Source: Fibrobacteria bacterium
GTDB taxonomy: Bacteria > Fibrobacterota > Fibrobacteria > UBA11236
Direction of reading: 5' to 3'
Assembly (NCBI GenBank): GCA_041746255.1
Contig: JBGTHM010000102.1
Coordinates: 28,758-92,757 of the forward strand
Length of the DNA stretch: 64,000 nucleotides
The position numbers were made by a program, and so were the translations under genes. Below, one piece after another: positions 1,931 through 41,881 of this stretch; within the stretch, counting starts at the first letter, position 1, and each line of letters begins with the position of its first letter. The notes below the pieces were generated by a model. The model saw nothing but the letters and a program-made list of their open reading frames with translations. It did not search any database and had not been told where the DNA came from.

Positions 1931-2188
1931 GTGGTCGATCCTCAATTGTTGGAAATATTGTGCTGTCCCGAAACCAAGGAAGATGTTGCGTTGGAACAGG
2001 GGGAGTTGATCGAAAAAATCAATGCGCGTATCGACACGGGAGAGCTCAAAAACCGTGGCGGCGAAACCGTCAAGGAAAAAATGGAGGCCGGCCTGATGCG
2101 GGCCGACCGGAAATACCTCTACCCGATTCGAGACGATATTCCCATTATGTTGATTGATGAGGCAATTCCTATGGAAGGTTTGATATAA
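1931..2188 (+). CDS. Trm112 family protein (UPF0434/YcaR-like)
   Basis: 85 aa with the LLEILCCPETK motif near the N-terminus and a YPIRDDIPIMLIDEA tail, the classical Trm112/YcaR pattern. Start codon is GTG. Confidence 0.72.
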   Translation: MVDPQLLEILCCPETKEDVALEQGELIEKINARIDTGELKNRGGETVKEKMEAGLMRADRKYLYPIRDDIPIMLIDEAIPMEGLI

Positions 2189-2293: not shown

Positions 2294-4945
2294 ATGATGA
2301 GCATTCGCTACACGTCCGAACAGTTGCAGGAAAAATTCGGGCACGGTAATTCCGGTTTTGCCTTCGCCCGCATGGCGGACTCCCTTCGGGAAGAAGGGCG
2401 CATGGAAGAAGCCATTGCCCTGTGCACCCATAAAATACAGCAACATCCCGATTACCTTACCGGCCGTCTGGTAGGCGCCCGCTGTTTGCTTGAGGCCGAT
2501 CGGCTGCGACCGGCCCGGGAAGAGTTCGAAGCCGCCCTCAGGCTCGATCCGCGCTGTCTCGCCGCCTGGAAAGGACTGGCGCAGACGCTGGCGCGCATGT
2601 CGGATAAAGGCTCCGAAGCTTGTTTGGCGCGCATACAGGAAATCGATCCCTGGTTCGATACTTCTTCCCTAGTCGGAGGATCCTGGGCTCCTGCGGAGTC
2701 GACATTTGAAGAAAGCCTTTCTGGTGACAGGAACAAAACTCTCGAATTGTCTTTGGACGATGTGGGTGACTACCTGCCCTCTTCGGACGAGGAGTCTTTT
2801 ACTCTGGAAGCCGAGCCTAATCCGGACGAAACGGTAATTGCAGCCGGGATTGGCTTTGAGACCGAAACCGAGATTGTGGATTCTGAAGAGAGGATCGCGA
2901 TAGAGGACGGTGACGGTGACGTCCCGGTTTCAGGGCAGGATGTAGAAAATCGTTTAGACAGTATTTTTGGGGAAGAATCCTCGGATTCTTCCGGCGACGC
3001 CAGCGGGAACACTGGCTTTTTTGCCGAAGCCGCTGATGTCGGGGGCGATTCCCCAGACCTGACGGCTACCGCTTTCCAACCTTTCCCCGAAATCGGTGGG
3101 TCTTCCGTTGCAGACGCAGGCGAAACGGAATCCGAGCTTGATTCCGAATTGCTGACCGGTGAGGATGTTGCCGATCATCTGGATCGGTTTTTTGAAGAAG
3201 AGCCCGAACCTCTTCCGTTAACCCAGGAAAAGCATCAGGCAGAAGAGCCGCTCCCGCAAGAGCAGCCGGAAGCAGCTGTTCCGGTCGATGAATTCGTCGC
3301 TGAAACCGAAACGATTGAAACGGTTTCCCAGCCACAGGAAGAGGATGTCGATACTACGCGGCATGACAACAAAATTGTTTCCGGCTTTGAATTTTTAGGA
3401 GAAGACGCAGGTGGGCCTGCCGAAATCGAAAAGGAGGAGGGTTTCTCCTTTTCCGCCGCAGGGGATAGCAATGCCTTGGCTCGGGATTCGATGCAGGATT
3501 GGTTGATGGGAACCGAAGAGCCCGAAGCAACCGGGATTGAGGCGAACAATATTCCAGAAGTTTCGCTTGAATCTTCCACTCCATCCGAAATCAGCACCAG
3601 CGATACTTTTGCCAGCCTTTTCGCCGACGAAAGTATCGCCGAGGAATCATCCCCTCCCCGCGATGAGGCCGAAACCGCCCACGATTCCCCATCCGGTTCC
3701 GATACCGTAGCCTTTGAAATCGGCGCGCCGGAGGAAGGGGATCCCAGCGTTGAAGAGTTGACGGAAGAATTGGAGAATCGGCTGGACCAATTGTTCGATG
3801 ACGACGGCGAGGGGAGCGGCGAAAATCCTCCCGAGTCTGTAGCAGCGGAGGAGGATTCCAGCAGGCCAATGGCGGAGTTCCCGTTTTCAGCGGGTACGGA
3901 AACGCTGATCATGCCTCGCTCGGAGATGGAAAAGCACGCGGTTGAGGAGGAGGATACTGAGGAAGAGGTGCAAGAGACAGTGGATTTACGCCGCGATCCC
4001 TTCACGGATTCCGCAACGGCGACCGAATCTTCTCCCATGGCCGGCCTTTTTGAAGAACCCCTGGAATCCGAAGATGGGGATGCCGGTAGTCACAATCTAT
4101 TTGAAATAGAGTCACCCCAGGGAAGAAACTCTGGAGTCGACCCGGAAATAGTCAGTGGCCAGGATGTAACCCAGCGCTTGAATGAGTTATTCGGTTCCGA
4201 TCACCCTGACGACGGACCACTTGACGATGATGCGTCCTTAACCGGAGCCGATCAGACCACGATCGCACCTAAAGTCGAGCCATCCCTTGCGAAAGAGTTC
4301 GGGTTTGAGACGGAGACTGACTTCCCATCGGAAGAGGAAACCCCGCTTCAATCCGAAAAAGCCGGCGAGAAAGAACCGGTTCTATTCGAGGCGGAAGAGG
4401 AAAAATCGGCCTCAGACACCCATTTTATCGAAACCGACAAACATTCTCCGGTGGTATCGGGTGATGATATTTCCTCGCGGCTGGCCATGATGTTTGGAGA
4501 TTCAGAAGTCGGATCCGAGTCTGAAACCGTGAATTTGCTTCCAGTGCCGGAAACCACGCAGGAATCCGGATTGGACGCCGTTCTTCCTCACCAGGAGGAA
4601 AGGGCTGATAACCACCCGATTGGACAGGATTCCGGTGAGGACGAGGCGCCCCTGGAGGATGAAGAATCGGAAGAGATACCCACCAATGTTGCCACTGTTA
4701 CCTTGGCAGAGATATATTTCCAACAAGGCTTAAAAGAACAGGCCCTGCAAATCTACCGTCAGCTTCTTGATCGCGAGCCCGAGAATGAAGCGGCCCAGAA
4801 ACGAATTGCTGAGATTGAGGCCAGCAAGACGGAAGAGGATAATTCCGAGGACGATGCAACCGACCGACCGGGGCGCCAGCGAGGGGTAAGACCCGGAACC
4901 CGGCCTGGGTATCGGTCCGGCAGGCCTCCAAGGAGGCGGGGATGA
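2294..4945 (+). CDS. TPR-flanked, extremely acidic repeat protein, possibly a FimV/HubP-like polar scaffold
   Basis: The N-terminus (about 120 aa) and the C-terminus (TLAEIYFQQGLKEQALQIYRQLLDREPENEAAQKRIAEIEA) are TPR-like. The roughly 750 aa between them are D/E/S-rich and carry five copies of the motif [ST]G[QED]D[VI]xx[RH]L[DNA]x[ILMF]FG (SGQDVENRLDSIFG, TGEDVADHLDRFFE, LTEELENRLDQLFD, SGQDVTQRLNELFG, SGDDISSRLAMMFG). The protein ends in a basic RPGRQRG...RRRG tail. The ATG at 2294 (MMSIRY) is preferred over the GTG at 2198. Confidence 0.55.
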   Translation: MMSIRYTSEQLQEKFGHGNSGFAFARMADSLREEGRMEEAIALCTHKIQQHPDYLTGRLVGARCLLEADRLRPAREEFEAALRLDPRCLAAWKGLAQTLARMSDKGSEACLARIQEIDPWFDTSSLVGGSWAPAESTFEESLSGDRNKTLELSLDDVGDYLPSSDEESFTLEAEPNPDETVIAAGIGFETETEIVDSEERIAIEDGDGDVPVSGQDVENRLDSIFGEESSDSSGDASGNTGFFAEAADVGGDSPDLTATAFQPFPEIGGSSVADAGETESELDSELLTGEDVADHLDRFFEEEPEPLPLTQEKHQAEEPLPQEQPEAAVPVDEFVAETETIETVSQPQEEDVDTTRHDNKIVSGFEFLGEDAGGPAEIEKEEGFSFSAAGDSNALARDSMQDWLMGTEEPEATGIEANNIPEVSLESSTPSEISTSDTFASLFADESIAEESSPPRDEAETAHDSPSGSDTVAFEIGAPEEGDPSVEELTEELENRLDQLFDDDGEGSGENPPESVAAEEDSSRPMAEFPFSAGTETLIMPRSEMEKHAVEEEDTEEEVQETVDLRRDPFTDSATATESSPMAGLFEEPLESEDGDAGSHNLFEIESPQGRNSGVDPEIVSGQDVTQRLNELFGSDHPDDGPLDDDASLTGADQTTIAPKVEPSLAKEFGFETETDFPSEEETPLQSEKAGEKEPVLFEAEEEKSASDTHFIETDKHSPVVSGDDISSRLAMMFGDSEVGSESETVNLLPVPETTQESGLDAVLPHQEERADNHPIGQDSGEDEAPLEDEESEEIPTNVATVTLAEIYFQQGLKEQALQIYRQLLDREPENEAAQKRIAEIEASKTEEDNSEDDATDRPGRQRGVRPGTRPGYRSGRPPRRRG

Positions 4946-4969: not shown

Positions 4970-5449
4970 ATGAAGCTCAGCGATGTGGCCCACCTGGTCA
5001 AGCTTTTGGACAAGAGCAGCTTGACGGAGTTAAGCTTTAGTGACGAAATAAGTCGGGTGGTGCTGAAAAAAGGGGTAACGGGAGTCGTTACGACCGTTTC
5101 TCCCCAACAGGCGCCCGCCCCCCAATATTTTCAGCCGGCTCCGGGGCCGTTTCCCGGGGCTAGCGCCTCTCCGGAAATATCCCCTCCGGCGGAAAAAGCC
5201 GGTCCCAAATTCAAGGAGGTCACCTCGCCCATGGTAGGTACCTTCTATGCTTCCTCCACCCCGGGCGCAGCCGCGATGGTAGAGGTGGGCTCTACAGTCA
5301 AGGCGGGACAGGTGGTGTGTATTATCGAAGCGATGAAAATCATGAACGAAATCGAATCGGACGTGGGCGGAGTCGTGGAGGAGGTCTGCGTGAAAAACGA
5401 AACCCCGGTTGAATACGGCACGGTCCTATTCCGGATCCGCCCGGGCTGA
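4970..5449 (+). CDS. accB: Acetyl-CoA carboxylase biotin carboxyl carrier protein
   Basis: Pro/Ala-rich linker followed by a biotinyl domain containing EAMKIMNEIE (AMKM biotinylation motif) and a C-terminus resembling E. coli BCCP. Confidence 0.88.
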   Translation: MKLSDVAHLVKLLDKSSLTELSFSDEISRVVLKKGVTGVVTTVSPQQAPAPQYFQPAPGPFPGASASPEISPPAEKAGPKFKEVTSPMVGTFYASSTPGAAAMVEVGSTVKAGQVVCIIEAMKIMNEIESDVGGVVEEVCVKNETPVEYGTVLFRIRPG

Positions 5450-5453
5450 ATCC

Positions 5454-6554
5454 GTGAATCTTGAAGTTTTATTGCGGGAAATGATGCACCGAAGTGCATC
5501 GGATCTCCACCTTAGGGTGGGAGGACAACCCGCATTCCGCATCAACGGGGAACTTTACCGGCTGCAAACCGAGCGCCTGCTTCCCGAGCAGATGGAACAA
5601 TTCATACTCGACCTGATGGATCGGAACCAAAAGGCACGGTTCGAGGAAAACATGGAGCTTGATTTCGCTGTGGGAGTACGCGGAGTGGGACGATTTCGCG
5701 TCAATGCCTATAAGCAACGCGGCACTCCCGCGCTATGCATTCGGGCCATTGTCGGCATTATTCCCCCCTTCGAACAATTGGGCCTCCCCGAGATTATCCG
5801 CGACATCGCCTTGAAGCGCCGCGGCCTCATCCTTGTCACGGGGACCACCGGATCGGGCAAATCCACTACCTTGGCTTCGATGATCGATCATATCAACGAG
5901 CACCTGGCCTGCAATATCATCACTATCGAAGACCCCATCGAATTTTTATACAAGGACAAAAAAAGCATCATTTCGCAGCGCGAGGTGAACCAGGATACCG
6001 TCAGCTACGCATCGGCTTTGAAAGCCGCTTTCCGGGAAGATCCGGACGTGATTCTCCTCGGTGAAATCCGCGACCAGGACACCATGTCCATTGCGCTGAC
6101 CGCGGCCGATACCGGCCATTTGGTGCTCTCCACCCTGCACACCATGAACGTGGTGGAAACCGTGAACCGCATCATCTCCTTTTTTCCTCCCCACCAACAC
6201 CAACAGGTTCGGCTTATGCTGAGCTCGGTGCTGGTTTCCGTCATCACCTTGCGGCTTGTCGTGCGCAAGGACGGACGAGGGCGGGCCCCGGCTTGCGAGA
6301 TCATGGTGAACAATGCCACTTTACGGGAATTACTCACGTATCCCGAGCACACGCACCAAATCGACGCGGCGATTCGTGAGGGCCATACTCAATACGGTTC
6401 GCAGTCATTCGATCAAAGTATTCTCAAGCTCTATCAAGACGATGTCATCAGCTACGAAACGGCCCTGGCGAACGCCAGCAATCCCGACGATTTCGAGCTC
6501 AAGGTTCGGGGCGTAGAAGGCACCTCCGACAGGAATTGGATAAGCGGTGTTTAA
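5454..6554 (+). CDS. pilT: Type IV pilus retraction ATPase PilT
   Basis: Near-collinear with P. aeruginosa PilT. Shared elements are ASDLHL, GVxRFRVNA, Walker [44 protein letters not shown] and [11 protein letters not shown]. The probable start is the GTG at 5454 just after the accB stop; the track's TTG at 5409 lies inside accB. Confidence 0.88.
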
Positions 6555-7914
6555 AAAAATTCTGATAGCCAATCGCGGCGAAATTGCGCTGCGAGTCATT
6601 CGTTCATGCAAAGAAATGGGAATCAAGACGGTGGCGGTACACTCCAGCGCCGATACCCATTCCTTGCACGTTCACTTTGCCGACGAAGATATTTGCATCG
6701 GTCCGCCCGATTCCAAGCGCAGCTACCTGAACATGCAACAGATTCTGGCTGCGGCGGAACTTACCAACGCCGATGCCATTCATCCCGGATATGGATTTTT
6801 ATCGGAGAACGCCAAATTCGCCGAAATGTGCGAAGACAACCGGGCAGTATTCATCGGCCCTTCGGCGGAAGTCATCCGGAGCATGGGCGACAAGAGCGTA
6901 GCCAAATCGACCATGAAAAAAGCGGGAGTGCCCACCATTCCGGGATCCGAAGGCGTGGTGGCGACCCTGGACGATGCCCTGGCCGCAGCCAAGACGGTAG
7001 GGTTTCCCGTCATCGTAAAGGCTTCGGCGGGAGGCGGCGGACGGGGCATGCGCGTGGCCCATTCGGAAGAAGAATTGAAGAAACTGTATCCGGTAGCCGC
7101 AGCCGAGGCGGTGGCCTGTTTTGGCCGAGGCGATTTGTATCTGGAACGCTATTTCACCGAGCCGCGCCATGTCGAAATCCAGCTTATCGGCGATAAGCAT
7201 GGGAACATGGTGTATTTGGGTGAACGCGACTGTTCCATCCAACGCAGGCATCAAAAACTCATCGAAGAATCTCCCAGTCCGGCAGTAACTCCCGAGATAC
7301 GTGAGAAAATGGGGAAGGTAGCGGTGGCGGGAGCCCGCTACGCCGGATATTACAATGCCGGAACCATCGAATTCCTTTTCGACAGCAAGGATTCCTCCTT
7401 CTTTTTCATGGAAATGAATACGCGCATCCAGGTGGAGCATCCCGTAACCGAAGCCACCACGGGAGTGGACCTGGTGCGGGCGCAAATCCAGGTGGCCGCG
7501 GGTGAACATCTGGAATTCACCCAGGAAAGCATCCAGCTTTTTGGGCACAGCATCGAATGCCGGATCAACGCGGAGGATCCGAACAACGACTTCCGGCCCA
7601 GCCCGGGCACCATCACCGAATTCCACCTTCCCGGGGGGATGGGGGTACGGATCGATACCCATTGTTATAGCGGTTACGTGGTTCCCCCCAATTACGACAG
7701 CATGATAGCCAAGCTGATCGTGCACGCGCCTACGCGGGAACAAGCCATTGAGCGTATGCTGCGCGCCCTGGACGAATTCATCATCGTAGGCATCAAGACG
7801 ACCATTTCCATGCATAAGCGCATCTTGCGCCATCCGAAATTCGCCCAGGGTGAATACAGCACCCGATTTTTGGAACTCTATCCCGAACTCCTAGTGGAGC
7901 CCCTCAATGCCTGA
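6547..7914 (+). CDS. accC: Acetyl-CoA carboxylase biotin carboxylase subunit
   Basis: N-terminus [30 protein letters not shown] matches E. coli AccC. An ATP-grasp domain follows, with [14 protein letters not shown]. The GTG start overlaps the pilT stop by 8 nt. Confidence 0.93.
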
Positions 7915-9652: not shown

Positions 9653-10150
9653 ATGGACTCGGAAAAGCTGAAAAACCTGTACCGCCGGTATGGCCCGCTT
9701 GTGCTGCGGCGCTGCGGTCGACTATTGGGTAATTCCACCGAAGCCGAGGACGCCATGCAGGAGGTTTTCATGCAGATTCTAAGGAATCCCGCGCTGATCG
9801 ATGCCGAGTTTCCCTCCAGCCTTTTGTACAAGATCGCCACGAACACCTGTCTGAACCGTCTGCGAGGGCGTTCGCGTCGGGCCGAGACGCGCGAGGATGC
9901 CGCCTTGCTCGCCATCGCCTCGGAGGAGGACGTGGAGGCGCGCTCGGCTGCCGGGCGTTTGCTCGACCGGTTGTTTGGACGCCACCCCGAATCCACCCGC
10001 GTCATGGCCGTACTGCACTTCTTGGACGGTCTCACGCTTGAAGAAGTGGCGCGCGAGACCTCGCTCTCCGTATCCGGTGTTCGCAAGCGCCTTCGCGCGC
10101 TGAAGGATAGCTCCCTTAAACTCGGCGACACGGAGGTTGTCCATGGCTGA
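9653..10150 (+). CDS. ECF-subfamily RNA polymerase sigma-70 factor
   Basis: 165 aa with sigma-70 region 2 (LYRRYGPLVLRRCGRLLGNSTEAEDAMQEVF) and region 4 HTH (LDGLTLEEVARETSLSVSGVRKRL). Its end overlaps the next gene by 14 nt. Confidence 0.85.
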   Translation: MDSEKLKNLYRRYGPLVLRRCGRLLGNSTEAEDAMQEVFMQILRNPALIDAEFPSSLLYKIATNTCLNRLRGRSRRAETREDAALLAIASEEDVEARSAAGRLLDRLFGRHPESTRVMAVLHFLDGLTLEEVARETSLSVSGVRKRLRALKDSSLKLGDTEVVHG

Positions 10151-11006
10151 GCCCATTTTACCGGGATCCTCGGAACCCGTTTCCGACCTGCTTTTGGAGC
10201 GTTACGCGCTCGGCGAGTTGCCGCTCGATCTGAAACGGCGAGTTGAGGCGCGACTGGACGTGGATCCTGCGCTAAGCGCCCGCCTCGACTCTTTGCGCGC
10301 CTCCGACGAAACGTTGCTGAAGCAATATCCTCCCGAAGTCGTCGTGCCAAGCCTTAGAAACCTACTCCGACGCGAGCGGGTGGAAATGAATAACCGTAAC
10401 GCGCATACGGGACGGAGCTCGGCCTATTTTCTGGCAAAGCCTGTCTTCGCGGCCGCGCTTGTGTTAGCGGCGGTGTCCATCCCCCTGTGGCAGTTCGGGC
10501 GATCGGTGCTTCCACCTTTGGTGGATGAAGGCCTAGTCGCTGTTATTTCCGTCCCGGAACCTTCCGTAATTGCGCCGGAACCCACGAAAGAGGGCACACG
10601 AATCAAAGGACTGGATCCCGCCATCGCGCTGTTCCGACGCACGGATCAGGGCGCCGAGGCCCTCAAGCCTGGCGCGACGGTGCGTCCTGGCGATGTGCTC
10701 CGGGTCGGCTATCGCTCCGGCGGTTTTCCATTCGGCGCCATCTTTTCGGTGGACGGAAACGGTAGCGTTACCCGCCATTGGCCGCTTGCGGGCGACGGTG
10801 GGGGCCGCCTCGAGGCCGGAGAGCAACTGCTCCCCGGCGCGTTCATGCTGGATGCGGCCCCGGATTATGAACGATTTTTCCTGTTGGTTTCGGAAGAACC
10901 ATTCAATCTGAATCCCGAGCTGGAGGCGCTGCTTGCCGGTAATCCACCCAGGACACGCGGGCTCCAAACAATACGCTTCGAACTCCTGAAGGACAATGGA
11001 ATATGA
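10137..11006 (+). CDS. Membrane-spanning anti-sigma factor with a periplasmic DUF4384-like domain
   Basis: Translationally coupled to the ECF sigma gene. An N-terminal anti-sigma-like helix (LLERYALGELPLDLKRRVEARL) is followed by one TM segment (FAAALVLAAVSIPLW) and a C-terminal beta-rich domain (GDVLRVGYRSGGFPFGAIFSVDGNGSVTRHWP...FFLLVSEEPF). That domain recalls DUF4384, a domain I remember as often found with caspase domains. Confidence 0.6.
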   Translation: MSMAEPILPGSSEPVSDLLLERYALGELPLDLKRRVEARLDVDPALSARLDSLRASDETLLKQYPPEVVVPSLRNLLRRERVEMNNRNAHTGRSSAYFLAKPVFAAALVLAAVSIPLWQFGRSVLPPLVDEGLVAVISVPEPSVIAPEPTKEGTRIKGLDPAIALFRRTDQGAEALKPGATVRPGDVLRVGYRSGGFPFGAIFSVDGNGSVTRHWPLAGDGGGRLEAGEQLLPGAFMLDAAPDYERFFLLVSEEPFNLNPELEALLAGNPPRTRGLQTIRFELLKDNGI

Positions 11007-13399
11007 AAACCCCTCTCGCTCTCATACTGACGGCATCGCTCTGCCTGGCCCAAATTACTCATGCCGCGGCATCGGATGGCGCGACGCGCCGATTCGCGCT
11101 GGTAATCGGCGCGCACGAAGGCGGTAAGGGGCGCGACCGGCTCCTGTACTCCGGTTCGGATGCACGAGCCTTCCAGAATACGCTGCAGGAACTGGGCGGC
11201 CTGAGCTCGGTTGACGCGAATCTTTTGATTGATCCGGATAGCGCAGGCCTGCAGCGAGCCTTCGAAAAACTCGCGGCCCGGGTTCAGGTTGCGAGACGGG
11301 ACGGCGCGCGCACCGAGGCGGTCGTATACTACTCCGGCCATGCCGACGAGAACGGTTTGCAACTTGGCAAGGAGCGGTTCGACTATCGAGCCTTCCGGGA
11401 GCGGATGAACGCCCTCGGTGCGGATGTGCGCATCGCGGTAGTCGACGCCTGCGCGTCCGGAGCTCTCACCCGTATGAAGGGTGGCACGCCTGTGCAAGCT
11501 TTCATGGTGGACCGATCCGCGCGTGCCGAAGGTTACGCTTTCCTTACTTCCAGTTCCGAGAGCGAGGTGGCGCAGGAGAGCGATCGGCTGCGGGGATCCT
11601 TCTTCACTCATGCGCTCACCACGGGCCTTCGCGGCGCGGCCGACGCGACGCGGGACGGGCGCGTGACTTTGCACGAGGCCTATCAGTTCGCCTACCACGA
11701 AACCCTTGCCCGAACGGTGTCAACCCGAGGAGGGCCTCAGCATGCCGCCTACGACATCCAACTTAGTGGTAGCGGTGACGTGGTGCTTACCGATCTGCGT
11801 CAGGCCACGGCTTCACTGGTGCTGGCAGAAGCTTTGCACGGTCGGCTATTCATCCGGGACAGTCTCGATCATCTTACCGCCGAGTTGAATAAGCCCGCGG
11901 GACGCGAAATGAACTTTGGCCTACCGCCGGGAACCTACGGACTGCGCCTACAGCAGGGCACGAGTTGGAGCGGAGCCACGGTAACGTTGCTCGAAGGTAA
12001 ATCGGCCGTACTTGATCCGTCCTCCTTTCGCCCGGTCGAGAGCGAGCCCACGGCATTTCGCGGGGGGGAAGGCGATAGTGGTCGTGCGTTCCGGCATTTA
12101 CAGGGAACAGGAAATCCCGGATTTTCCGCCTCGTTCCTGTACGACGCGAAGAAAGAGGATTGGTACGGCACTCAGATCGCCCTGCTGGCCACCGATGGGC
12201 GCAAGAATCGCCGCGGCGGGCAGGTCGCGGTCGGGTTCAATTTTACGCGCGGGGATCTTGAGGGTTACCAGGGAGCAGCGGGCTTGAACGTGGTCGGGGG
12301 GGCGCTGCAGGGATTCCAGTTCGCGCAAATCGGAAACTTCACGGCTGAAGACGCACATGGCACGCAGTTCTCCGGGATCTTCGGAGCGACCGGCGGTGGT
12401 CTTAATGGTGTTCAGGTGGCCGGTATCCTTAACCTCGCCGGCGGCGGTGTCGAGGGCTTGCAAGGAGCCGGAATCTTCAACATCTCGGGCGATTCCGTAA
12501 GAGGCTTGCAAATAGGCGGTATCTTCAACATCGCTGCAGAAAGCGTACGCGGTGGACAAGGCGCCGGTATCTTCAATATCGCGGGCGGAAAGATAAAAGG
12601 CGGCCAAGGTGCCGGAATCTTCAACATCACCGCACGCGATATTATCGGAGGTCAGGGCGCCGGAATCTTCAACGTGGCCGGAGGCGACATCACAGGAGGT
12701 CAGGGCGCTGCCATTTTCAATGCGACTGCGGGATCTCTTAGAGGCATTCAAGGCTCGGCCATCTTGAATTTCGCCGGCCGGGTCGAGGGGCTTGCTTCGG
12801 ACAGGGGATCGATGCCGGGTTTCCAAATCACTTCCATTCTAAACGTCGCGGGGAAGGTCAATGGGCACCAAATCGGTTTGGTGAATCTATCGGATGACTA
12901 TCAATCGGGGTTTCCCCTGGGTCTCGTGAATATCAGCCGAAAAGGCGCGTTTCACGGCATAACGTGGGTGGACGAAACCGGCATGGCCTACGCGGGGCTG
13001 CGCACTGGGGTACGATCCGTATATTCCATCCTGGCGGTCGGAACGAATGCATTCGATGACCAGTCCCTGTTCGCTCCTACCTTCGGCATGGGCGCGCGTT
13101 TCTCCTTGGGCAAGTCCTGGTTCCTGGAACCCGACCTGATGTACAGCACGCTTTTCGAGTCGAAGAACTATTCATTCGATGACGCGGAAGTAAACACGGA
13201 GTGGTCGCGCCTAAGATTTGCCGCAGGGTGGGAATTTCTCCCCTACGCTTCCGTATTCTGGGGGGTGGCATACAATGTAGCAGTACACACCCAAACGGAT
13301 GCCCCGGTGACGGGAAGCAATTTTCCTTTTTTCACCTCGGTTTCCCATCACGTCAGCATGTGGCCCGGGGCATTCCTGGGAATTCGTGTCGGAAAGTGA
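11003..13399 (+). CDS. Secreted caspase-family (peptidase C14) protein with 17-aa tandem repeats and a beta-rich C-terminal domain
   Basis: Signal peptide MKTPLALILTASLCLAQITHAAAS. The caspase-like domain carries a His-Cys dyad context (VVYYSGHADENG ... IAVVDACASGALTR). The central region holds about 8 repeats of GGQGAGIFNIAGGxIx. The C-terminal roughly 190 aa alternate hydrophobic and polar residues in the manner of beta-strands. The start overlaps the anti-sigma stop by 4 nt. Confidence 0.72.
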   Translation: MKTPLALILTASLCLAQITHAAASDGATRRFALVIGAHEGGKGRDRLLYSGSDARAFQNTLQELGGLSSVDANLLIDPDSAGLQRAFEKLAARVQVARRDGARTEAVVYYSGHADENGLQLGKERFDYRAFRERMNALGADVRIAVVDACASGALTRMKGGTPVQAFMVDRSARAEGYAFLTSSSESEVAQESDRLRGSFFTHALTTGLRGAADATRDGRVTLHEAYQFAYHETLARTVSTRGGPQHAAYDIQLSGSGDVVLTDLRQATASLVLAEALHGRLFIRDSLDHLTAELNKPAGREMNFGLPPGTYGLRLQQGTSWSGATVTLLEGKSAVLDPSSFRPVESEPTAFRGGEGDSGRAFRHLQGTGNPGFSASFLYDAKKEDWYGTQIALLATDGRKNRRGGQVAVGFNFTRGDLEGYQGAAGLNVVGGALQGFQFAQIGNFTAEDAHGTQFSGIFGATGGGLNGVQVAGILNLAGGGVEGLQGAGIFNISGDSVRGLQIGGIFNIAAESVRGGQGAGIFNIAGGKIKGGQGAGIFNITARDIIGGQGAGIFNVAGGDITGGQGAAIFNATAGSLRGIQGSAILNFAGRVEGLASDRGSMPGFQITSILNVAGKVNGHQIGLVNLSDDYQSGFPLGLVNISRKGAFHGITWVDETGMAYAGLRTGVRSVYSILAVGTNAFDDQSLFAPTFGMGARFSLGKSWFLEPDLMYSTLFESKNYSFDDAEVNTEWSRLRFAAGWEFLPYASVFWGVAYNVAVHTQTDAPVTGSNFPFFTSVSHHVSMWPGAFLGIRVGK
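12405..12795 (+). repeat. Coding tandem repeat of about 8 units at 48-51 bp period, encoding the GxQGAGIFNIAGG motif
   Basis: The ggaatcttcaacatc / ggtatcttcaa(t/c)atcgc cores recur at about 12474, 12521, 12569, 12620, 12668, 12716 and 12764. The antisense ORFs (MLKIPAP repeats) reflect the same periodicity. Confidence 0.8.
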
Positions 13400-16086: not shown

Positions 16087-17313
16087 ATGCGGGTCCGGTT
16101 ACAAGGGTGTAAGGTTGTCATGATTCGCATGCACATGGATGAGGTTAAGGCGGGTATGGTCCTGGCCCGCTCCCTGGTGAAGGAAAACGGAGATTTGTTG
16201 CTGGCCTCGGGCTTCGTCATAACCGAGCGCGTTTTGGCCAAGCTTCGTGAAATCGGCCTTTCGGGGTGCTATGTCTACGAAGAAGGCACGGAATTCGTCA
16301 TTCCCGAAGAAATGATTTCGGAGCAGCTCGCCAATCAAACCCAGGGAATCTTGAAGGATAATGCCGAGGCGCTCAAGACCGCTCTCAAAACCCAGGAAAT
16401 CACCCAGGATAACCTGAAATCCGCGCTCAAGGACAAGTCCCGCTTTAAAAATATCATCGCGGTGGACCGCATGAAGAACGCCGCTCAGGATATTATCAAT
16501 AGCTTGATGGGGAGCGAGCCCGTAATCGTGAATATCAGTTCCATCCGCACCAAAAGCGGCTATGTCTTCCAACATGCGTTAGACGTCGCTGTTACCGCCA
16601 TCATGGTGGGAGTGCGTATCGGTTATTCGGAAAAGGAATTGGAGGAGTTGGCGATGGGTTGTCTGCTCATGGATTTGGGCATGGTCATGATATCGGATAG
16701 CATCGTTTACAAGACCTCGCCCTTGAACGATGCGGAGAAAAACCTGCTGCGCGAGCACACCACTCTAGGATACGCGATTTTGCGGGAGAATCAAAAAATC
16801 GCCTTGACCACGGCGCATGTCGCTTATCAACACCATGAGAGGCAGGACGGAACAGGTTTCCCCCGGGAATTGATCGGGGACAATACCCTTCCCATCAAGC
16901 GAATTTCGGGTGAGAGAAATCGAATGCACCGATATGCGGAAATAGCCGCCGTGGCAGACACTTATGTGAGCCTCCTCTCCCCGCGCCCGGGAACAGGCGT
17001 ATTGCGCACACCGGATGAAGTGATGAAACTTCTCATCCTAGGATCCGGAACCCATCTCAACAAGTCAATCGTGGACGGGTTAATCACCATGATCCCGATT
17101 TTTCCCGTGGGATCGCGCATTGCCGTGGTGGAGGATCGTAAGTTCGGAAAGTTGTTGGGTTGCACCGGAATCGTCACAAAAACCCGCATGGATGCGCCGG
17201 AACAGCCAGAAATCGTCGTTCTTTACGATAAGGAGAAGAATAAAATGACTCCGGTGATAATCGACTTACTCGAAGAGCCGGGAGTAAAAATCCAATTCGC
17301 GAAATTGCGATGA
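16087..17313 (+). CDS. HD-GYP domain c-di-GMP phosphodiesterase-like protein
   Basis: HD motif HALDVAVTAIMVG, HTTLGYAIL and the signature HHERQDGTGFP (GYP variant GFP). Confidence 0.75.
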   Translation: MRVRLQGCKVVMIRMHMDEVKAGMVLARSLVKENGDLLLASGFVITERVLAKLREIGLSGCYVYEEGTEFVIPEEMISEQLANQTQGILKDNAEALKTALKTQEITQDNLKSALKDKSRFKNIIAVDRMKNAAQDIINSLMGSEPVIVNISSIRTKSGYVFQHALDVAVTAIMVGVRIGYSEKELEELAMGCLLMDLGMVMISDSIVYKTSPLNDAEKNLLREHTTLGYAILRENQKIALTTAHVAYQHHERQDGTGFPRELIGDNTLPIKRISGERNRMHRYAEIAAVADTYVSLLSPRPGTGVLRTPDEVMKLLILGSGTHLNKSIVDGLITMIPIFPVGSRIAVVEDRKFGKLLGCTGIVTKTRMDAPEQPEIVVLYDKEKNKMTPVIIDLLEEPGVKIQFAKLR

Positions 17314-20727: not shown

Positions 20728-22329
20728 ATGCGAACCTTGATTCTTCTTATCCTGCTTTTTTCCGTCATCGGCGGGAAACAATCCTACGCCCAAACCCAGC
20801 CGCTTCCGAATTTTATGCTCATTGTCGCCGACGACATGGGACCGCAATTGGAAAAGTATGGCCACCCCGGCGCGCGGACTCCAACTCTGGACTCCCTCGC
20901 CAATCAGGGAGTGTTGTTCCGAAACGCGCAGGCGCCGGGGTCCACCTGCTCGGTCGCGCGCGCGTCGATCATGACCGGCACCCATCCCCATACCCATAAT
21001 GTGCGCATTAACGTGCATGAATACATGGGTCCGAAACCGAATTTCAGCAGCAATGAATTGAATTTGATGCAATCGCAGGCCCTTCCCGATTCCCTGGCTA
21101 CCTTGGTGGAGCTTCTGGTCAAGGCGGGCTATCGTACCGGACTTACCAAGAAATTCCATACCGCTTCCCATGACCGGTATCCCTATCACGAGTGGCTGAA
21201 AGGGGACGAAACTTCCGAGGTAAAAGCCTTTATCCAACGTGCCGGAGCTAAGCCCTGGTTCTTGATGGTGAATGTCAGTTCGCCCCATCGTCCCTTTCGC
21301 CTATTCCAAAGTGTAGGCCCGACGCCAAACGAATCCGTATTCAAACTTCCCGGTCACTTTCCGAATACTCCGGTGATTAAAAAAGATTGGACTGAATACC
21401 TGAAAGCCATCCAACGTACCGATGCCGAAGTGGGAATAGCCGTGAATTCCGTGCGCCAATTGAACCAGGCGAACAAAACCGTGATTATTTTCGTGGGCGA
21501 TCATGGTCCGCCCTACCATCGCGGGAAATACTCTACTTATGGATTCGGAGTGAACATACCTTTCATCGTTTCGGGGCCACCTGATTTGGTGAAGAAAAAT
21601 CCGCAAGGCGCGACTTCTTTGGTTAGCCTAGTCGATATCATGCCGACTTTACTGGATTATGCGGGTATTGCTAAACCGCGCGGCGTCCAGGGAGTTTCGT
21701 TGAGGCCATTATTGCTGGGAACTGCGGGGGCCAAAACCCATGATTATTTGTTTTCCGAGGTCCATCATGGCGGCGGGAGCCCGGGCTCTGCTTTGCAAGA
21801 GCGTTCGATTTTTGATGGCCGCTTCCGTTTGATCTTCCGGGATCATTTGCAGAAGCGCTATATCGTTCCGGGGGATAACCGCGAGGTCAGTCCTTGGGGT
21901 AACCCGGTTTATGCCGAAATCATCAAACGCAAAGGCGAATTCCCCGCTCAATATGCCATGCTGGCGCAACGGGATTCCGATTTGGAGGGGAACGCTCCCA
22001 TGGCGGAGTTCTACGACACCTCCACCGACCCGTGGGAAGTAAAAGATTTATGGAATTCCCAAAACCATAATGAGGATAAAAACCGGCTGATTCGGGCCTT
22101 GGCGGATTGGGGCCGGGAAACGGGAGACAGGTATCTCGACTATGCAAAGCTGGGAGGGACCATTTCCATTCATTCCCCAAAAACTTTCCCTGGATCGGAA
22201 GCGCTGAACGGCCGAACCACCAGCGGATTCGGTATCACTCCGCTGTTTGAATACCAGTCCGAGGACGGAAGTTTACAATTCCGCGATTCCCAGGGCCGTA
22301 GCCGGATTCCGGCGCTCTTGCCTCAGTAA
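20728..22329 (+). CDS. Sulfatase family protein, paralog 1, secreted
   Basis: Signal peptide followed by LIVADDMGPQLEKYGHPGARTPTLDSLA. The formylglycine motif is the CxAxR variant (CSVARASIMTG). The metal-binding GDHG is also present. Confidence 0.8.
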   Translation: MRTLILLILLFSVIGGKQSYAQTQPLPNFMLIVADDMGPQLEKYGHPGARTPTLDSLANQGVLFRNAQAPGSTCSVARASIMTGTHPHTHNVRINVHEYMGPKPNFSSNELNLMQSQALPDSLATLVELLVKAGYRTGLTKKFHTASHDRYPYHEWLKGDETSEVKAFIQRAGAKPWFLMVNVSSPHRPFRLFQSVGPTPNESVFKLPGHFPNTPVIKKDWTEYLKAIQRTDAEVGIAVNSVRQLNQANKTVIIFVGDHGPPYHRGKYSTYGFGVNIPFIVSGPPDLVKKNPQGATSLVSLVDIMPTLLDYAGIAKPRGVQGVSLRPLLLGTAGAKTHDYLFSEVHHGGGSPGSALQERSIFDGRFRLIFRDHLQKRYIVPGDNREVSPWGNPVYAEIIKRKGEFPAQYAMLAQRDSDLEGNAPMAEFYDTSTDPWEVKDLWNSQNHNEDKNRLIRALADWGRETGDRYLDYAKLGGTISIHSPKTFPGSEALNGRTTSGFGITPLFEYQSEDGSLQFRDSQGRSRIPALLPQ

Positions 22330-22437: not shown

Positions 22438-24039
22438 ATGCGATCCTTAATACTTCCTATACTGCTTTTTTCCGTCATCGGCGGTAAACTATCCTTCGCC
22501 CAACCTCAGCCGCTTCCGAATATATTGCTCATTGTCGCCGACGATATGGGACCGCAACTGGAAAAGTACGGTCATCCCGGTCCGCGCACTCCCACCTTGG
22601 ATAGCCTCGCCAATGAGGGAGTATTATTCCGAAATGCCCAGGCGCCAGGGTCTACCTGCTCAGTTGCGCGCGCGTCGATAATGACCGGCACCCATCCGCA
22701 TACCCATAATGTGCGCATCAACGTGCTGGAGCACATGGGTCCGAAACCGAATTTCAGCGGCAACGAATTGGATTTAATGAATTCGCAGGCCCTTCCCGAT
22801 TCTTTGTCGACATTGGTGGAACTACTGGTCCAGGCAGGCTATATAACCGGAATTACCAAGAAATTCCATACCGCTTCCCATGATAAATACCCGTTTCACG
22901 AATGGATGAACGAAGGGGAGACCTCCCCGGCGCATTCTTTTATCCAGCGCGCGGGAGACAAACCCTGGTTCTTGATGGTCAATATCAGTTCGCCCCATCG
23001 GCCATTTTTTAAGTACCAAACGGTAGGCCCGACGCCTGACGAAGCGGTTATCAAACTCCCCGGCCACCTACCCTCCACTCCCACGATCAGGAAGGATTGG
23101 ATTGAATACCTGAAAGCCATTCAACGTACCGATGCTGAGGTGGAAAGGGTCGTCAGTTCCATACACCAATTGAATCGTGCGGGCAAAACCGTCATTATTT
23201 TCGTAGGCGATCATGGTCCAGCCTACCATCGGGGGAAATTCTCGACCTATGGATTCGGCGCGAACATACCCTTCATCGTCACGGGACCACCCGATTTAGT
23301 CAAGAGGAACCCGCAAGGGTCGGATGCTTTAGTCAGCTTGATAGATATTATGCCAACCTTACTGGATTATGCCGGTATCGGTAAACCCCGCGCCATACAG
23401 GGAGTCTCCCTGAGGCCATTATTGCTGGGAAATGCGGAGGCCAAAACCCATGATTATTTATTTTCCGAGGTTCATCACGGCGGCGGCAGTCCGGGCTCTG
23501 CTTTGCAGGAGCGTTCGATTTTCGATGGCCGCTTCCGCTTGATCTACCGGGACCATATGCAGTGGCGCTATATCGTTCCGGGGGATAATCGCGAGGTAAA
23601 TCTTTGGGAAAACCCGGTTTATGCCGAAATTATCCAGCGCAAAAGCGAGTTCCCTATTCAATACTCCATGCTGGCGCAAAGGGATTCCAATTTGGAGGGA
23701 GATGCTCCCATGGCGGAGTTCTATGACACTTCCACCGATCCGTGGGAAGTAAACGATCTTTGGAAGTCTCAAAACCAAACGGAAGATAAAAATCGGCTGA
23801 TTCTGGCTTTGGTGGATTGGGCCCGCGAAACAGGTGATACGTATCTCGACTATACAAAGATAGAGAAAACCGTTTCCATCCATTCCCGAAAAACAACCAC
23901 CGGAGGGGGAGAGTTGAACGGCCGAACCCCCATTGGGTTCGGTACTACTCCGCTGTTTGACTACCAGCCCAAGGATGGAAGTTTACAATTCCGCGATTCC
24001 CGGGGACGTAGCTGGATTCCGGCGCTATTGCCCCAGTAA
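22438..24039 (+). CDS. Sulfatase family protein, paralog 2, a tandem duplicate of 20728..22329
   Basis: Same length (533 aa) and about 80% identical to paralog 1 across the whole protein. The roughly 20 bp upstream of the start are also shared (cgctatattcaatggtatg versus cgctatactcaatagcatg). Confidence 0.8.
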   Translation: MRSLILPILLFSVIGGKLSFAQPQPLPNILLIVADDMGPQLEKYGHPGPRTPTLDSLANEGVLFRNAQAPGSTCSVARASIMTGTHPHTHNVRINVLEHMGPKPNFSGNELDLMNSQALPDSLSTLVELLVQAGYITGITKKFHTASHDKYPFHEWMNEGETSPAHSFIQRAGDKPWFLMVNISSPHRPFFKYQTVGPTPDEAVIKLPGHLPSTPTIRKDWIEYLKAIQRTDAEVERVVSSIHQLNRAGKTVIIFVGDHGPAYHRGKFSTYGFGANIPFIVTGPPDLVKRNPQGSDALVSLIDIMPTLLDYAGIGKPRAIQGVSLRPLLLGNAEAKTHDYLFSEVHHGGGSPGSALQERSIFDGRFRLIYRDHMQWRYIVPGDNREVNLWENPVYAEIIQRKSEFPIQYSMLAQRDSNLEGDAPMAEFYDTSTDPWEVNDLWKSQNQTEDKNRLILALVDWARETGDTYLDYTKIEKTVSIHSRKTTTGGGELNGRTPIGFGTTPLFDYQPKDGSLQFRDSRGRSWIPALLPQ

Positions 24040-40306: not shown

Positions 40307-41881
40307 GTGGCGCTTTATTCCGTAGGCTCGTCATGGCACCACAGGGAAGTCGAGAGGCCAGTGAACGCACCGGAAGAACCATCCAAAGCACAAGATGCGG
40401 TTTCACGATTGTCAAAAACCGCTGATTCCGGCCTGCCTGCGGATGCCGAAGCGAGCGCATTCAAACCCTCATCGGCGGCTGTAGGCCGCTCGACGCCCCC
40501 GGAGATTTCCATTCGTCTGAGTCCGGATCGGATAAGGGCTTTTCTTTCTGTAAAAACCGGCGAAGGAAATGTCGGCGATTTATCCATGGATGCCATAGTG
40601 AAGGCATTGAAGGAAACCGGAATCTCTCGCGGGGTGCAAACCGACTTTATCGTTCAATTCGTGGCGCGGTGGAATACCATCAAGAAGTCCATGGTGGACA
40701 TCCCGGTGGCCGAGTCACCGGATATACCCATCTCGGGCATACCAGGCCGCCTGGAGATTTTGGCGCACCCGAAAGGGGAGCCGGAGGGCGAGTCCGCTTC
40801 GGGAAAAGTGGATTTCCGGGAGAAAAAGACTTTGATCGAAGTCGCGGCGGGCCAAGATCTGGCCCGCTGGCATCCCCCCAAGGCTCCCCAAAATGGGGTG
40901 GACCTATTCGGTGAGAATGTGGTTCCTCCCGTTCCACCGGGTAACGCTCCCATAGCCGGACCCGGTGTCGAGGTTCCGGGGAATGATCCCTCGCTGTACC
41001 GGGCGCTACGGCCGGGTTTCCTACGTATCCATGCGGGAACGGTAGAAGTAGGTGAACATTACGTCGTAGACGGGGACGTGGATTATTCCAGCGGTAACAT
41101 CACCTACCTTCATTCCGTCCGAGTGACCGGCGACGTTCGCAACGGATTCCACCTTAAAGTAGGCGGCGATTTACGTATTGACGGAATTGTGGAAGACAGT
41201 TTTATCCTCTGTTCGGGTGATTTGATAGTCGGCACCGGCTGTGTGGGCACCGGGAAAGGCCTCATTAATATCAAGGGCAGCGCGAATATCGGGTTCGTCA
41301 CCAATCAGGCGGTCAAAAGCCGGGTGGACATCCTAATCGAGCGGGACAGTATGAATGCGAATCTTTACGGAGCCAAAATGGTGCAGGTCTTGGGCCACGT
41401 GGTGGGGGGCCAGGTTATGGCAGGGGAATTGGTGCATGTGGGGTCGATTGGAAACGATTCCGGTACACGCACTGAAATTGAATTGGGTAAGGATTATTTT
41501 CTCCATGAAACCCTGGCGACCATCCAAGCGAAAATCGAGGAATTAATCGGGGCGGTGACGCGAATATCCTTGAATTTGAACCGACTCAGGGAAAAACACG
41601 GGACGGACGGCTTGACGGGTTTCGAAAATGCCCAGTTGTTGGAGATGAGGATGGTGCGCGACGGCATTGAGGAGAAGATGCCGCTTTTGCAGGAGAAAAA
41701 AAGCCAGGTCGAAGAACGCATCCGCCAAGAGTATTTTCAAGAGAACCTCAAGATTAAAGTCGAGAAGAAAATCCACCCGGGAACGGTGATCAAAGTCTGC
41801 GGCGAAATCCTCACCTTCAATGAGACGTTGTCGGGTCCAAAAACCATCGCCTTCAGCGACGGTCGCTTGAAAATATTCTGA
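40307..41881 (+). CDS. DUF342 / FapA-like protein (beta-helical polymer-forming region plus C-terminal coiled coil)
   Basis: The central region has repetitive G-D/V/I-rich turns (HYVVDGDVDYSSGNITYLHSVRVTGDVRNGFHLKVGGDLRIDGIVEDSFILCSGDLIVGTG...), as remembered for DUF342. A coiled-coil segment follows. The gene ends 12 nt before the HD-GYP gene. Confidence 0.5.
   Translation: MALYSVGSSWHHREVERPVNAPEEPSKAQDAVSRLSKTADSGLPADAEASAFKPSSAAVGRSTPPEISIRLSPDRIRAFLSVKTGEGNVGDLSMDAIVKALKETGISRGVQTDFIVQFVARWNTIKKSMVDIPVAESPDIPISGIPGRLEILAHPKGEPEGESASGKVDFREKKTLIEVAAGQDLARWHPPKAPQNGVDLFGENVVPPVPPGNAPIAGPGVEVPGNDPSLYRALRPGFLRIHAGTVEVGEHYVVDGDVDYSSGNITYLHSVRVTGDVRNGFHLKVGGDLRIDGIVEDSFILCSGDLIVGTGCVGTGKGLINIKGSANIGFVTNQAVKSRVDILIERDSMNANLYGAKMVQVLGHVVGGQVMAGELVHVGSIGNDSGTRTEIELGKDYFLHETLATIQAKIEELIGAVTRISLNLNRLREKHGTDGLTGFENAQLLEMRMVRDGIEEKMPLLQEKKSQVEERIRQEYFQENLKIKVEKKIHPGTVIKVCGEILTFNETLSGPKTIAFSDGRLKIF

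Follow-up and report, generated by a model that had tools for sequence, protein, structure and literature searches.

X, its modules and its relation to FimV

The window studied here is a 64,000-nucleotide (nt) stretch of contig JBGTHM010000102.1 from a Fibrobacteria bacterium, read on the forward strand, and our subject is one gene in it, which we call X, together with its neighbour pilT, the gene of a type IVa pilus ATPase. As listed below, X codes for a protein in which two folded parts made of tetratricopeptide repeats (TPRs) stand on either side of a long acidic region, and the chain ends in a basic tail.

2294..4945, + strand: gene X, a TPR / acidic disordered region / TPR protein of 883 amino acids (aa), putatively a scaffold (open reading frame (ORF) and translation)
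2315..2653, + strand: N-terminal TPR domain of X (N-TPR), three TPRs with flanking helices, aa ~8-120 (Pfam, AlphaFold2, Foldseek)
4682..4849, + strand: C-terminal TPR hairpin of X with a capping helix, aa 797-852, 'VATVTLAEIYFQQGLKEQALQIYRQLL..EP.NE' (Pfam, AlphaFold2)
4865..4942, + strand: basic tail of X, RPGRQRGVRPGTRPGYRSGRPPRRRG, 26 aa with 10 Arg (sequence)

The true start of X is probably the second ATG, at 2297, because the N-terminus of the relatives reads 'MSI[RQ]Y', and the longer GTG-started ORF from 2198 is probably not used. Tandem helix-turn-helix repeats of 34 residues, seen by profile as well as by fold, place X in the TPR superfamily. In the Pfam scan TPR_19 matches aa 31-96 (E 1.3e-12) and TPR_14 matches aa 802-840 (E 1.3e-10), both above the Pfam cutoffs, which confirms the TPR-like character that an earlier note, made from the letters of this DNA, had ascribed to the two ends of the protein. 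In the AlphaFold2 model of full-length X, built on a 44-sequence alignment, the predicted local distance difference test score (pLDDT) is higher than 90 for residues ~20-125, with the N-terminal helices spanning H8-117, and it is 86-95 for residues ~800-850. Foldseek matches the N-TPR to OGT, consensus TPR and MamA, with a root-mean-square deviation (rmsd) of 1.5-1.9 Å to a three-repeat designed TPR, and a PDB sequence search with the same domain gives generic TPR matches only. The C-terminal hairpin is the best-conserved part of the family, the columns T801, T803, L804, A805, Y808, Q811 and Y821 being unchanged across 44 sequences.

As for composition, X consists of 16% E, 9% D and 9% S, and the 670 residues of aa 126-795 carry a net charge of -160, with 28% D+E and 4% K+R. 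X is predicted to be a cytoplasmic and soluble protein without signal peptide or membrane segment, as the earlier note had supposed, because it contains no hydrophobic segment (the top Kyte-Doolittle 19-residue mean is 0.63 and lies within the TPR hairpin) and because its Pfam matches at E<=10 include no LysM and consist of TPR-type families only.

Searching 1.84 billion cluster representatives exhaustively with HMMER recovered the family of X and gave 37 matches below 1e-30. A word-index search with full X was swamped by low complexity and returned one orthologue together with Gemmatimonadota N-TPR matches, and a profile search with the N-TPR brought up Gemmatimonadaceae fragments and hardly anything else. 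X has a single close orthologue, P0001, which shares 48% identity with it over 98% of the length and has the same synteny. The top ~60 relatives are built on a common plan: the N-TPR comes first, then an acidic insert, whose net charge lies between about -50 and -240, then the hairpin 'ATVTLAEIYFQQGLKEQALQIYRQLL', and at the end a basic tail, 'RRPRPGLKVPKRKK' or 'PLSGVRIKKKFK..'. Accordingly we define the family by the N-TPR, an acidic insert with SGxDVxxRLDxLF helices, the hairpin 'ATVTLAEIYFQQG' and the basic tail, encoded upstream of pilT; X carries all four modules, and pilT follows at most three genes downstream. A branch in Gemmatimonadota and Krumholzibacteriota has the N-TPR and the hairpin in common with X, and the extreme C-terminus of its members is an amphipathic, basic 'FxxWLxGLKK'. 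No Pfam or NCBIfam model describes the architecture or the motif of X, all NCBIfam matches being far below their cutoffs; the members are named 'tetratricopeptide repeat protein' at NCBI, and in the literature we found no publication describing them. To judge from the sequences, X thus represents a large, unannotated family in Fibrobacterota, Gemmatimonadota, Krumholzibacteriota and their relatives.

Some members have peculiarities of their own. P0009 (612 aa, from a JGI metagenome) is a fusion of 3-dehydroquinate synthase (AroB) to a TPR, an acidic linker and an X-type C-terminal hairpin ('TVTLADVYWSQGERESAL'); considering also that aroQ stands beside X in Gemmatimonadota, the hairpin module may be linked to shikimate-pathway genes. 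Moreover, the only close relative of the window among the GTDB representatives, CAYNXV010000002.1 (locus L004 / L001), is labelled 'uncultured Bifidobacteriales bacterium'. This label looks wrong, because the PilT, the X and the DUF4423 gene of that contig point to a Fibrobacterota-related lineage instead.

The earlier note had likened X to FimV. X in fact resembles the FimV/HubP/TspA proteins (COG3170) in its large acidic and mostly disordered body, in its TPR elements, including one near the C-terminus, and in its genetic tie to type IV pili, and those proteins are thought to be hubs recruiting several partners. According to PMC12918733, the defining parts of FimV/HubP/TspA are a LysM-like domain in the periplasm, which stands at the N-terminus and binds peptidoglycan, one transmembrane segment, a large acidic cytoplasmic region and a C-terminal FimV domain. 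X has the acidic cytoplasmic region; it has no LysM match and no membrane segment, just as the earlier note had remarked of its N-terminus, and no FimV domain either. TIGR03504, the profile of the FimV C-terminal domain which that note had named as a check, and TIGR03505, that of the FimV core, give no match to X at E<=10 in the NCBIfam scan, nor does either of them belong to the 25 families that 44 relatives match most often (E<=1), it being understood that HMMER filters may drop matches with E above ~0.1. Among the 60 PDB matches listed for the X C-terminus (phmmer) there is no FimV chain, and consensus or designed TPRs and OGT chains are found instead. No profile supports the likeness to the FimV C-terminal motif which the earlier note had seen in the helix pair at the C-terminus; the hairpin is a generic TPR, and this part of the description fails.

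On four of five defining features FimV membership was rejected. If X were nevertheless a divergent true member of FimV/HubP/TspA which has lost the periplasmic LysM and the membrane anchor, its acidic disordered body, TPR elements and link to a pilus gene would be accounted for, and the automatic labels of JGI/IMG do name P0134, P0174 and P0183 'pilus assembly protein FimV'. However, the defining parts are missing (LysM, membrane segment and any TIGR03504 or TIGR03505 match), the hairpin matches consensus TPRs, and X has an N-terminal cytoplasmic three-TPR domain as well as a polybasic tail, neither of which is a feature of FimV, so that we regard such a membership as very improbable. The two also differ in their distribution, the X family occurring in the phyla named above whereas FimV/HubP occur in Proteobacteria, and in the repeated unit, which in X is a 14-aa helix motif and not the acidic repeats of HubP, which are ~46 aa long. 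The expression 'cytoplasmic analogue of FimV' seems fair for how X may work, not for the family to which it belongs.

The helix motif of the acidic insert

Within the acidic insert of X a short motif occurs in five copies, preceded by an island that is related to it, as follows.

2744..2779, + strand: island ELSLDDVGDYLP, aa 151-162, akin to the main motif but shorter (invariant in the X/P0001 alignment; kept in the closer clade)
2924..2971, + strand: motif copy 1, PVSGQDVENRLDSIFG, aa 211-226 (pattern match; predicted helix H214-225, block pLDDT 76 and 66; hydrophobic moment 0.53)
3149..3196, + strand: motif copy 2, LLTGEDVADHLDRFFE, aa 286-301 (pattern match; predicted helix H289-300, block pLDDT 74; hydrophobic moment 0.78)
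3752..3799, + strand: motif copy 3, EELTEELENRLDQLFD, aa 487-502 (pattern match; predicted helix H486-501, block pLDDT 76)
4148..4195, + strand: motif copy 4, IVSGQDVTQRLNELFG, aa 619-634 (pattern match; predicted helix H622-633, block pLDDT 77)
4451..4498, + strand: motif copy 5, VVSGDDISSRLAMMFG, aa 720-735 (pattern match; predicted helix H723-734, block pLDDT 66)

The motifs proper start at nt 2930, 3155, 3758, 4154 and 4457, and all five positions given in the earlier note are right to within ~20 nt. Copy 3 is the most degenerate of the five, with its SGxD cap replaced. All five copies fit [DE][VIL]xx[RH]Lxx[ILMF]F, a pattern that occurs 5 times in the disordered region of X, against a mean of 0.0002 and a maximum of 1 in 20,000 composition-preserving shuffles. 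In the alignment of X with its orthologue P0001 the linkers have diverged and are rich in insertions and deletions, whereas the five copies are kept near letter-for-letter; further islands kept in the two proteins are ELSLDDVGDYLP, TFQPFP, IVSGFEFL, DSMQDWLMGTE and EVQETVDLRRDPF. Moreover, a hidden Markov model (HMM) of the motif finds 364 instances in 95 cluster representatives, with the consensus [VI]-[ST]-G-x-D-[VI]-x-x-R-[LIM]-D-x-[LIM]-F-[G/E], in which the G is conserved in 95%, the D in 94%, the R in 88% and the F in 97% of the instances. At least three copies are present in 71/96 proteins of 600 aa or more, with five as the commonest number, and the relatives having the X architecture (representatives of 50%-identity clusters) carry 3-7 copies each, again five most often. 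When the window and loci L001, L084, L086, L088, L089 and L090 were searched, the strict pattern was confined to X.

The predicted structure agrees with this picture. In the AlphaFold2 model the middle region of X has a pLDDT below 50, save for five helices which coincide exactly with the five motifs and reach 66-77, as means over 10-residue blocks. The hydrophobic moments of these helices are 0.46-0.78, compared with 0.23 on average over the disordered region. Viewed as a helix, the motif begins with an S/T-G-x-D N-cap, continues for three turns with V/L/[LIM]/F on one face, and closes with a Gly or acidic C-cap, and as modelled this is the anatomy of a docking helix.

It might be argued that the motifs are chance likenesses within D/E/S-rich low complexity and that X is an ordinary acidic protein, as the region is indeed compositionally biased. 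Against this stand the shuffles, the retention of the motifs across orthologues while the linkers diverge and in the 95 representatives, and the fact that they are the sole predicted helices of the region; such an accident can practically be dismissed. As far as these patterns tell, the motif is under selection. The earlier note's view of the five copies as repeated short linear motifs carried by an acidic scaffold is upheld, both by the islands in the 48%-identical orthologue and by the search across homologues which it had suggested, where the motif is kept.

In other branches of the family the motif takes different forms. The long form is absent from the Gemmatimonadota homologues according to the motif HMM, only a shorter 'LDxhF' core being in common, and the X proteins of Gemmatimonadota and Krumholzibacteriota have 1-3 copies of such a shorter core ('ELSLDxVF', 'FSFDQFF(G)'). 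The island ELSLDDVGDYLP of the window matches the 'ELSLDxVF' of the Gemmatimonadota homologues, and 'LSLDxV' is present in Gemmatimonadota X proteins. In the branches of P0166 and P0174 a drifted motif, 'EDDVxSAIDE[IL]xG', is found. In the copies of P0166 (locus L088) the R has become A and the F has become G or T, so that even the 'invariant' residues are seen to drift in certain lineages still keeping pilT. By eye, the insert of the same protein seems to include a large, recent and near-perfect duplication within itself, of considerably more than 100 aa and with the drifted motifs 'LPSEDDVANAIDEITGLE' and 'PNEDDVGSAIDELAGTE', and if the duplication is as it appears, it would show how the copy number of the motif changes. 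Resemblances to the ESCRT MIM1 'LxxRLxxL', the paxillin LD motif, the beta-clamp 'QLxLF' and, for the tail, the AT-hook were considered, but the patterns are not exact matches.

Linkage of X to pilT and joint loss of the motifs

X is part of a string of genes lying tightly packed on the same strand of the window, in the order accA, Trm112-like, X, accB, pilT, accC, dapA and apt. The genes around X and pilT are the following.

1931..2188, + strand: Trm112-like gene, 85 aa, directly upstream of X (NCBIfam Trm112_arch, E 1.6e-6, below the cutoff)
4970..5449, + strand: accB, coding for the biotin carboxyl carrier protein, after X and before pilT (TIGR00531, 150.7 bits against a cutoff of 115.2)
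5454..6554, + strand: pilT, type IVa pilus ATPase of the PilT/PilU family, between accB and accC and overlapping both (TIGR01420, 454 bits against a cutoff of 319)
6547..7914, + strand: accC, biotin carboxylase, directly after pilT (ORF; Pfam annotation of the L001 orthologue)

The pilT gene which the earlier note had placed just downstream of X is a real PilT gene and does lie downstream, with accB intervening; the nearest named homologues of its product belong to Fibrobacterota and share 61-65% identity. Several genes of the string overlap and no convincing intergenic terminator was seen from accA to the end of apt, which is consistent with one transcript, and X and pilT are probably co-transcribed.

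At least four gene orders with X upstream of pilT occur in Fibrobacterota-like lineages, Gemmatimonadota and Krumholzibacteriota. The first one, accA-trm112-X-accB-pilT-accC, is shared by the window, L001, L084/85, L088 and ten metagenome loci. The second one, X-aroQ-pepP-accB-pilT-accC, occurs in ~50 Gemmatimonadota species, and X...accB-pilT-accC is seen in a Krumholzibacteriota metagenome-assembled genome (MAG). The third one, coaD-X-pepP-pilT-FecR, contains no acc genes and is present in L089, in a MAG from Chitinivibrionales and in another with the label Fibrobacter sp.; X-pepP-pilT, likewise without acc genes, is the order in Chitinispirillum alkaliphilum, which is in culture and whose X is cut by the contig end. 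In the fourth one, the trm112-like-X-pilT of L090, X directly adjoins pilT. As judged by gene order, the pairing of X and pilT outlasts the change of the intervening genes across phyla, which is a classical signature of functional coupling, and pilT rather than acc appears to be the more general neighbour of X, because X stays near pilT where the cluster has no acc gene.

The fate of the motifs follows that of pilT, whose presence or absence is counted here within the gene cluster only. In the AccB tree the clade sister to that of the window has the order trm112-X-accB-accC, with pilT missing from the cluster, and in 7/7 of these pilT-less loci X is a mini form of ~180-235 aa, made of the N-TPR, a short linker and the hairpin, without acidic insert, motif or basic tail. 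All loci in which X ends with the tail 'RPRPGLKVPKRKK' (10/10) have accB-pilT-accC, and in the window's clade the basic tail accompanies every X that is followed by pilT and no mini form. For Gemmatimonadota, the short core 'hydrophobic-D-x-hydrophobic-F' is carried by 44/53 X proteins with pilT in the cluster (mean 1.58 vs 0.07 expected) and by 0/6 without it. Such a co-loss suggests that the motifs are the pilT-associated part of X and that in the window's clade this part would be the whole module of insert, motifs and tail. Taken with the synteny kept in several arrangements and phyla, it carries the earlier note's link between X and pilT well beyond adjacency in the window.

The set of mini forms (loci L093 and L106-L113; proteins P0157, P0158, P0163 and P0165) makes up a natural deletion series of the scaffold. 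The 559-aa 'X' of L112 was discarded as an artefact of ORF calling: an upstream frame reads on across accA/trm112, and what the locus really codes for is a mini form.

A different explanation of these neighbourhoods is that X is a housekeeping TPR adaptor for AccA/B/C, for the Trm112-like protein or for PepP, in which case the nearness of pilT would be inherited gene order and the insert would be an expansion specific to certain lineages, recruiting something that has nothing to do with pili. This fits with the position of X between accA/trm112 and accB in the window, with the TPR-only mini form staying in trm112-X-accB-accC without pilT, and with six Gemmatimonadota loci which keep X...accB-accC without pilT. 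However, X stands beside pilT without any acc genes in Chitinivibrionales, Chitinispirillum, the 'Fibrobacter sp.' MAG and L090, and the insert, the motifs and the tail vanish exactly where pilT vanishes. We consider the adaptor explanation unlikely, though it is the most plausible of the alternatives, followed by self-association, true FimV membership and chance low complexity in that order.

In the case of self-association, the motifs would bind the TPR modules of X itself, in cis or in trans, and build a self-associating network, that is a condensate hub or an autoinhibited scaffold, with PilT as a client at most. Short peptides and helices are classic ligands of TPR domains with three repeats, and the nearest folds of X include peptide-bound TPRs (CTPR390 with an Hsp90 peptide, CHIP/STUB1); moreover, two TPR modules and ~5 motifs supply the valency that networks need, and the motif helices stand out in the full-length model with the block pLDDT given above. 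The mini forms, however, keep both TPR modules (42-59% identity over aligned, mostly-TPR columns) without any motif, and therefore the conserved TPR surfaces are independent of the motif. In addition, the mini-form model has a predicted template modelling score (pTM) of only 0.58 and its full-span Foldseek alignments have rmsd >10 Å, which leaves the packing of the two TPR modules unproven, and fold searches of the full-length and mini-form models return generic TPR folds only; that N-TPR and hairpin might form a continuous domain with the disordered region as a loop is an idea we do not claim. All in all, self-association is in our judgement rather doubtful.

Some further regularities of the cluster may be recorded. 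The order accB-pilT-accC (4970-7914 in the window) is kept as far as Gemmatimonadota and Krumholzibacteriota, in 53/59 loci whose flank reaches accC. The genes accB and accC are almost universally adjacent acetyl-CoA carboxylase genes, and we know of no reason for a pilus motor gene inside the accBC operon. The slot before X is filled by a Trm112/YcaR-like gene also in L001, L084, L088, L090 (where accA is absent) and L093 (a mini form), and the Trm112-like protein may be a partner of the TPR core. In the Fibrobacterota-type loci L086, L089, L090, L092 and L116 a FecR-domain protein of ~250 aa (PF04773) follows pilT, and none is found there in the window.

A putative docking scaffold for the retraction motor, and other features of the window

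Based on the motif, the synteny and the co-loss, we propose with a probability of roughly 0.55 that X serves in the cytoplasm as a multivalent scaffold for docking and is coupled to the retraction ATPase PilT, being analogous but not homologous to FimV. Such a protein would be built of two modules. One is the small TPR core, composed of the N-terminal three TPRs and the C-terminal hairpin, which all family members have, the mini forms included; the other, the pilT-associated one, would comprise the long polyanionic disordered insert, its ~5 N-capped, three-turn amphipathic helices and the polybasic C-terminal tip. The helices would serve as docking sites, the V/L/L/F face entering a groove of the partner and being flanked by the invariant D and R, and the likeliest partner would be PilT itself or a component of the pilus that associates with it. 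X would probably be held at the anionic membrane by its basic tip, or in Gemmatimonadota by the 'FxxWLxGLKK' end, and the acidic chain may keep the docking sites extended and accessible, so that the outcome would be a hub concentrating, positioning or sequestering the retraction motor; the binding partner, the membrane binding of the tail and any polar localisation are what we infer here.

Several facts weigh against this proposal. X is set among housekeeping genes (acc, dapA, apt, pepP, aroQ), and some of the synteny may be inherited gene order. In the window ORFs scanned, up to ~45.8 kb of the 64 kb, there are no other pilus genes. Both co-losses are confined to a single clade each, hence they amount to two evolutionary events and not to 13 independent ones. 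The TPR core persists beside accB/accC without pilT, and therefore a part of the role of X is PilT-independent. Finally, L116 is a pilT-linked relative without the basic tail. In favour of the proposal, on the other hand, Fibrobacteres genomes are reported to have complete type IV pilus sets with 2-3 pilT copies (PMC4704652).

A more specific version of the docking-scaffold proposal, which we advance only tentatively and as clearly the less probable of the two, is that the ~5 helices directly dock the protomers of the PilT hexamer, X being a polyanionic 'leash' tethered to the membrane, by which the motor is captured, stored or positioned. If it is true, Fibrobacterota, Gemmatimonadota and related phyla would have evolved a FimV-independent way to control the time and place of type IV pilus retraction, working possibly via a multivalent, condensate-like hub, and X would be the first dedicated scaffold described for PilT.

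Among other known systems, SgmX of Myxococcus xanthus is a TPR protein stimulating type IV pilus formation with MglA and FrzS (PMC7519303, PMC7668184, PMC9811614). X would resemble SgmX in being a cytoplasmic, TPR-containing protein that regulates the pilus machinery or serves it as an adaptor, without being a structural part of the pilus. The two are set apart by description: SgmX consists almost wholly of TPR arrays and affects extension, at the leading pole, via MglA-GTP, whereas X combines 3+1 TPRs with an acidic disordered insert of 670 aa that bears the helix motifs, and is tied to the gene of a retraction ATPase. The C-terminal half of RNase E and PopZ are disordered scaffolds with short docking microdomains. 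They resemble X in mechanism only, by the charged disordered chain, the short helices recruiting partners and the terminal or amphipathic element binding membrane or pole, but there is no homology, the partners are others, and X adds folded TPR modules. Both folded parts of X are canonical TPRs as in generic TPR proteins (TPR_19, TPR_14, TPR_16; consensus TPR, OGT and MamA folds), but no curated family has the four-module architecture or the motif of X.

The recruitment, positioning and switching of PilT are among the less understood parts of type IV pilus biology. The known organisers, namely FimV, SgmX and PilZ/FimX, mostly concern assembly, extension or polarity, and we found no paper on a dedicated PilT scaffold in the literature; the databases call the X family only 'TPR protein', or wrongly 'FimV'. 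With its sharply defined motif and an unusually tight evolutionary coupling to pilT, the family offers a hypothesis at the level of peptides. It would also be a natural example of a modular disordered scaffold, whose insert is gained and lost together with the presumed client. Moreover, the X family may bear on polymer degradation in guts and soils, because pili are implicated in cellulose and chitin attachment in Fibrobacter and chitin-degrading relatives (PMC4704652, PMC6851124).

Apart from X and its cluster, some other features of the window are worth recording. An Rfam scan of the whole window gave no matches, and no rRNA or tRNA. A 798-aa protein at 11003-13399, whose gene comes just after a pair of extracytoplasmic function (ECF) sigma and anti-sigma genes (9653-11006), has an N-terminal caspase-like domain of the EACC1-associated type (E 2.5e-13), followed by a long Gly-rich run of repeats, 'GxQGAGIFNIAGGxIxG', and a probable beta-rich C-terminal region. 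Two tandem sulfatase paralogues of identical length, 533 aa, are located at 20728-22329 and 22438-24039. A gene for FapA (flagellar assembly protein A) lies at 40307-41881, and genes of the HD-GYP type (HD_5) lie at 16087-17313 and 41893-43101, one of them with a receiver-type match; the organism of the window is probably flagellated and uses cyclic di-GMP signalling.

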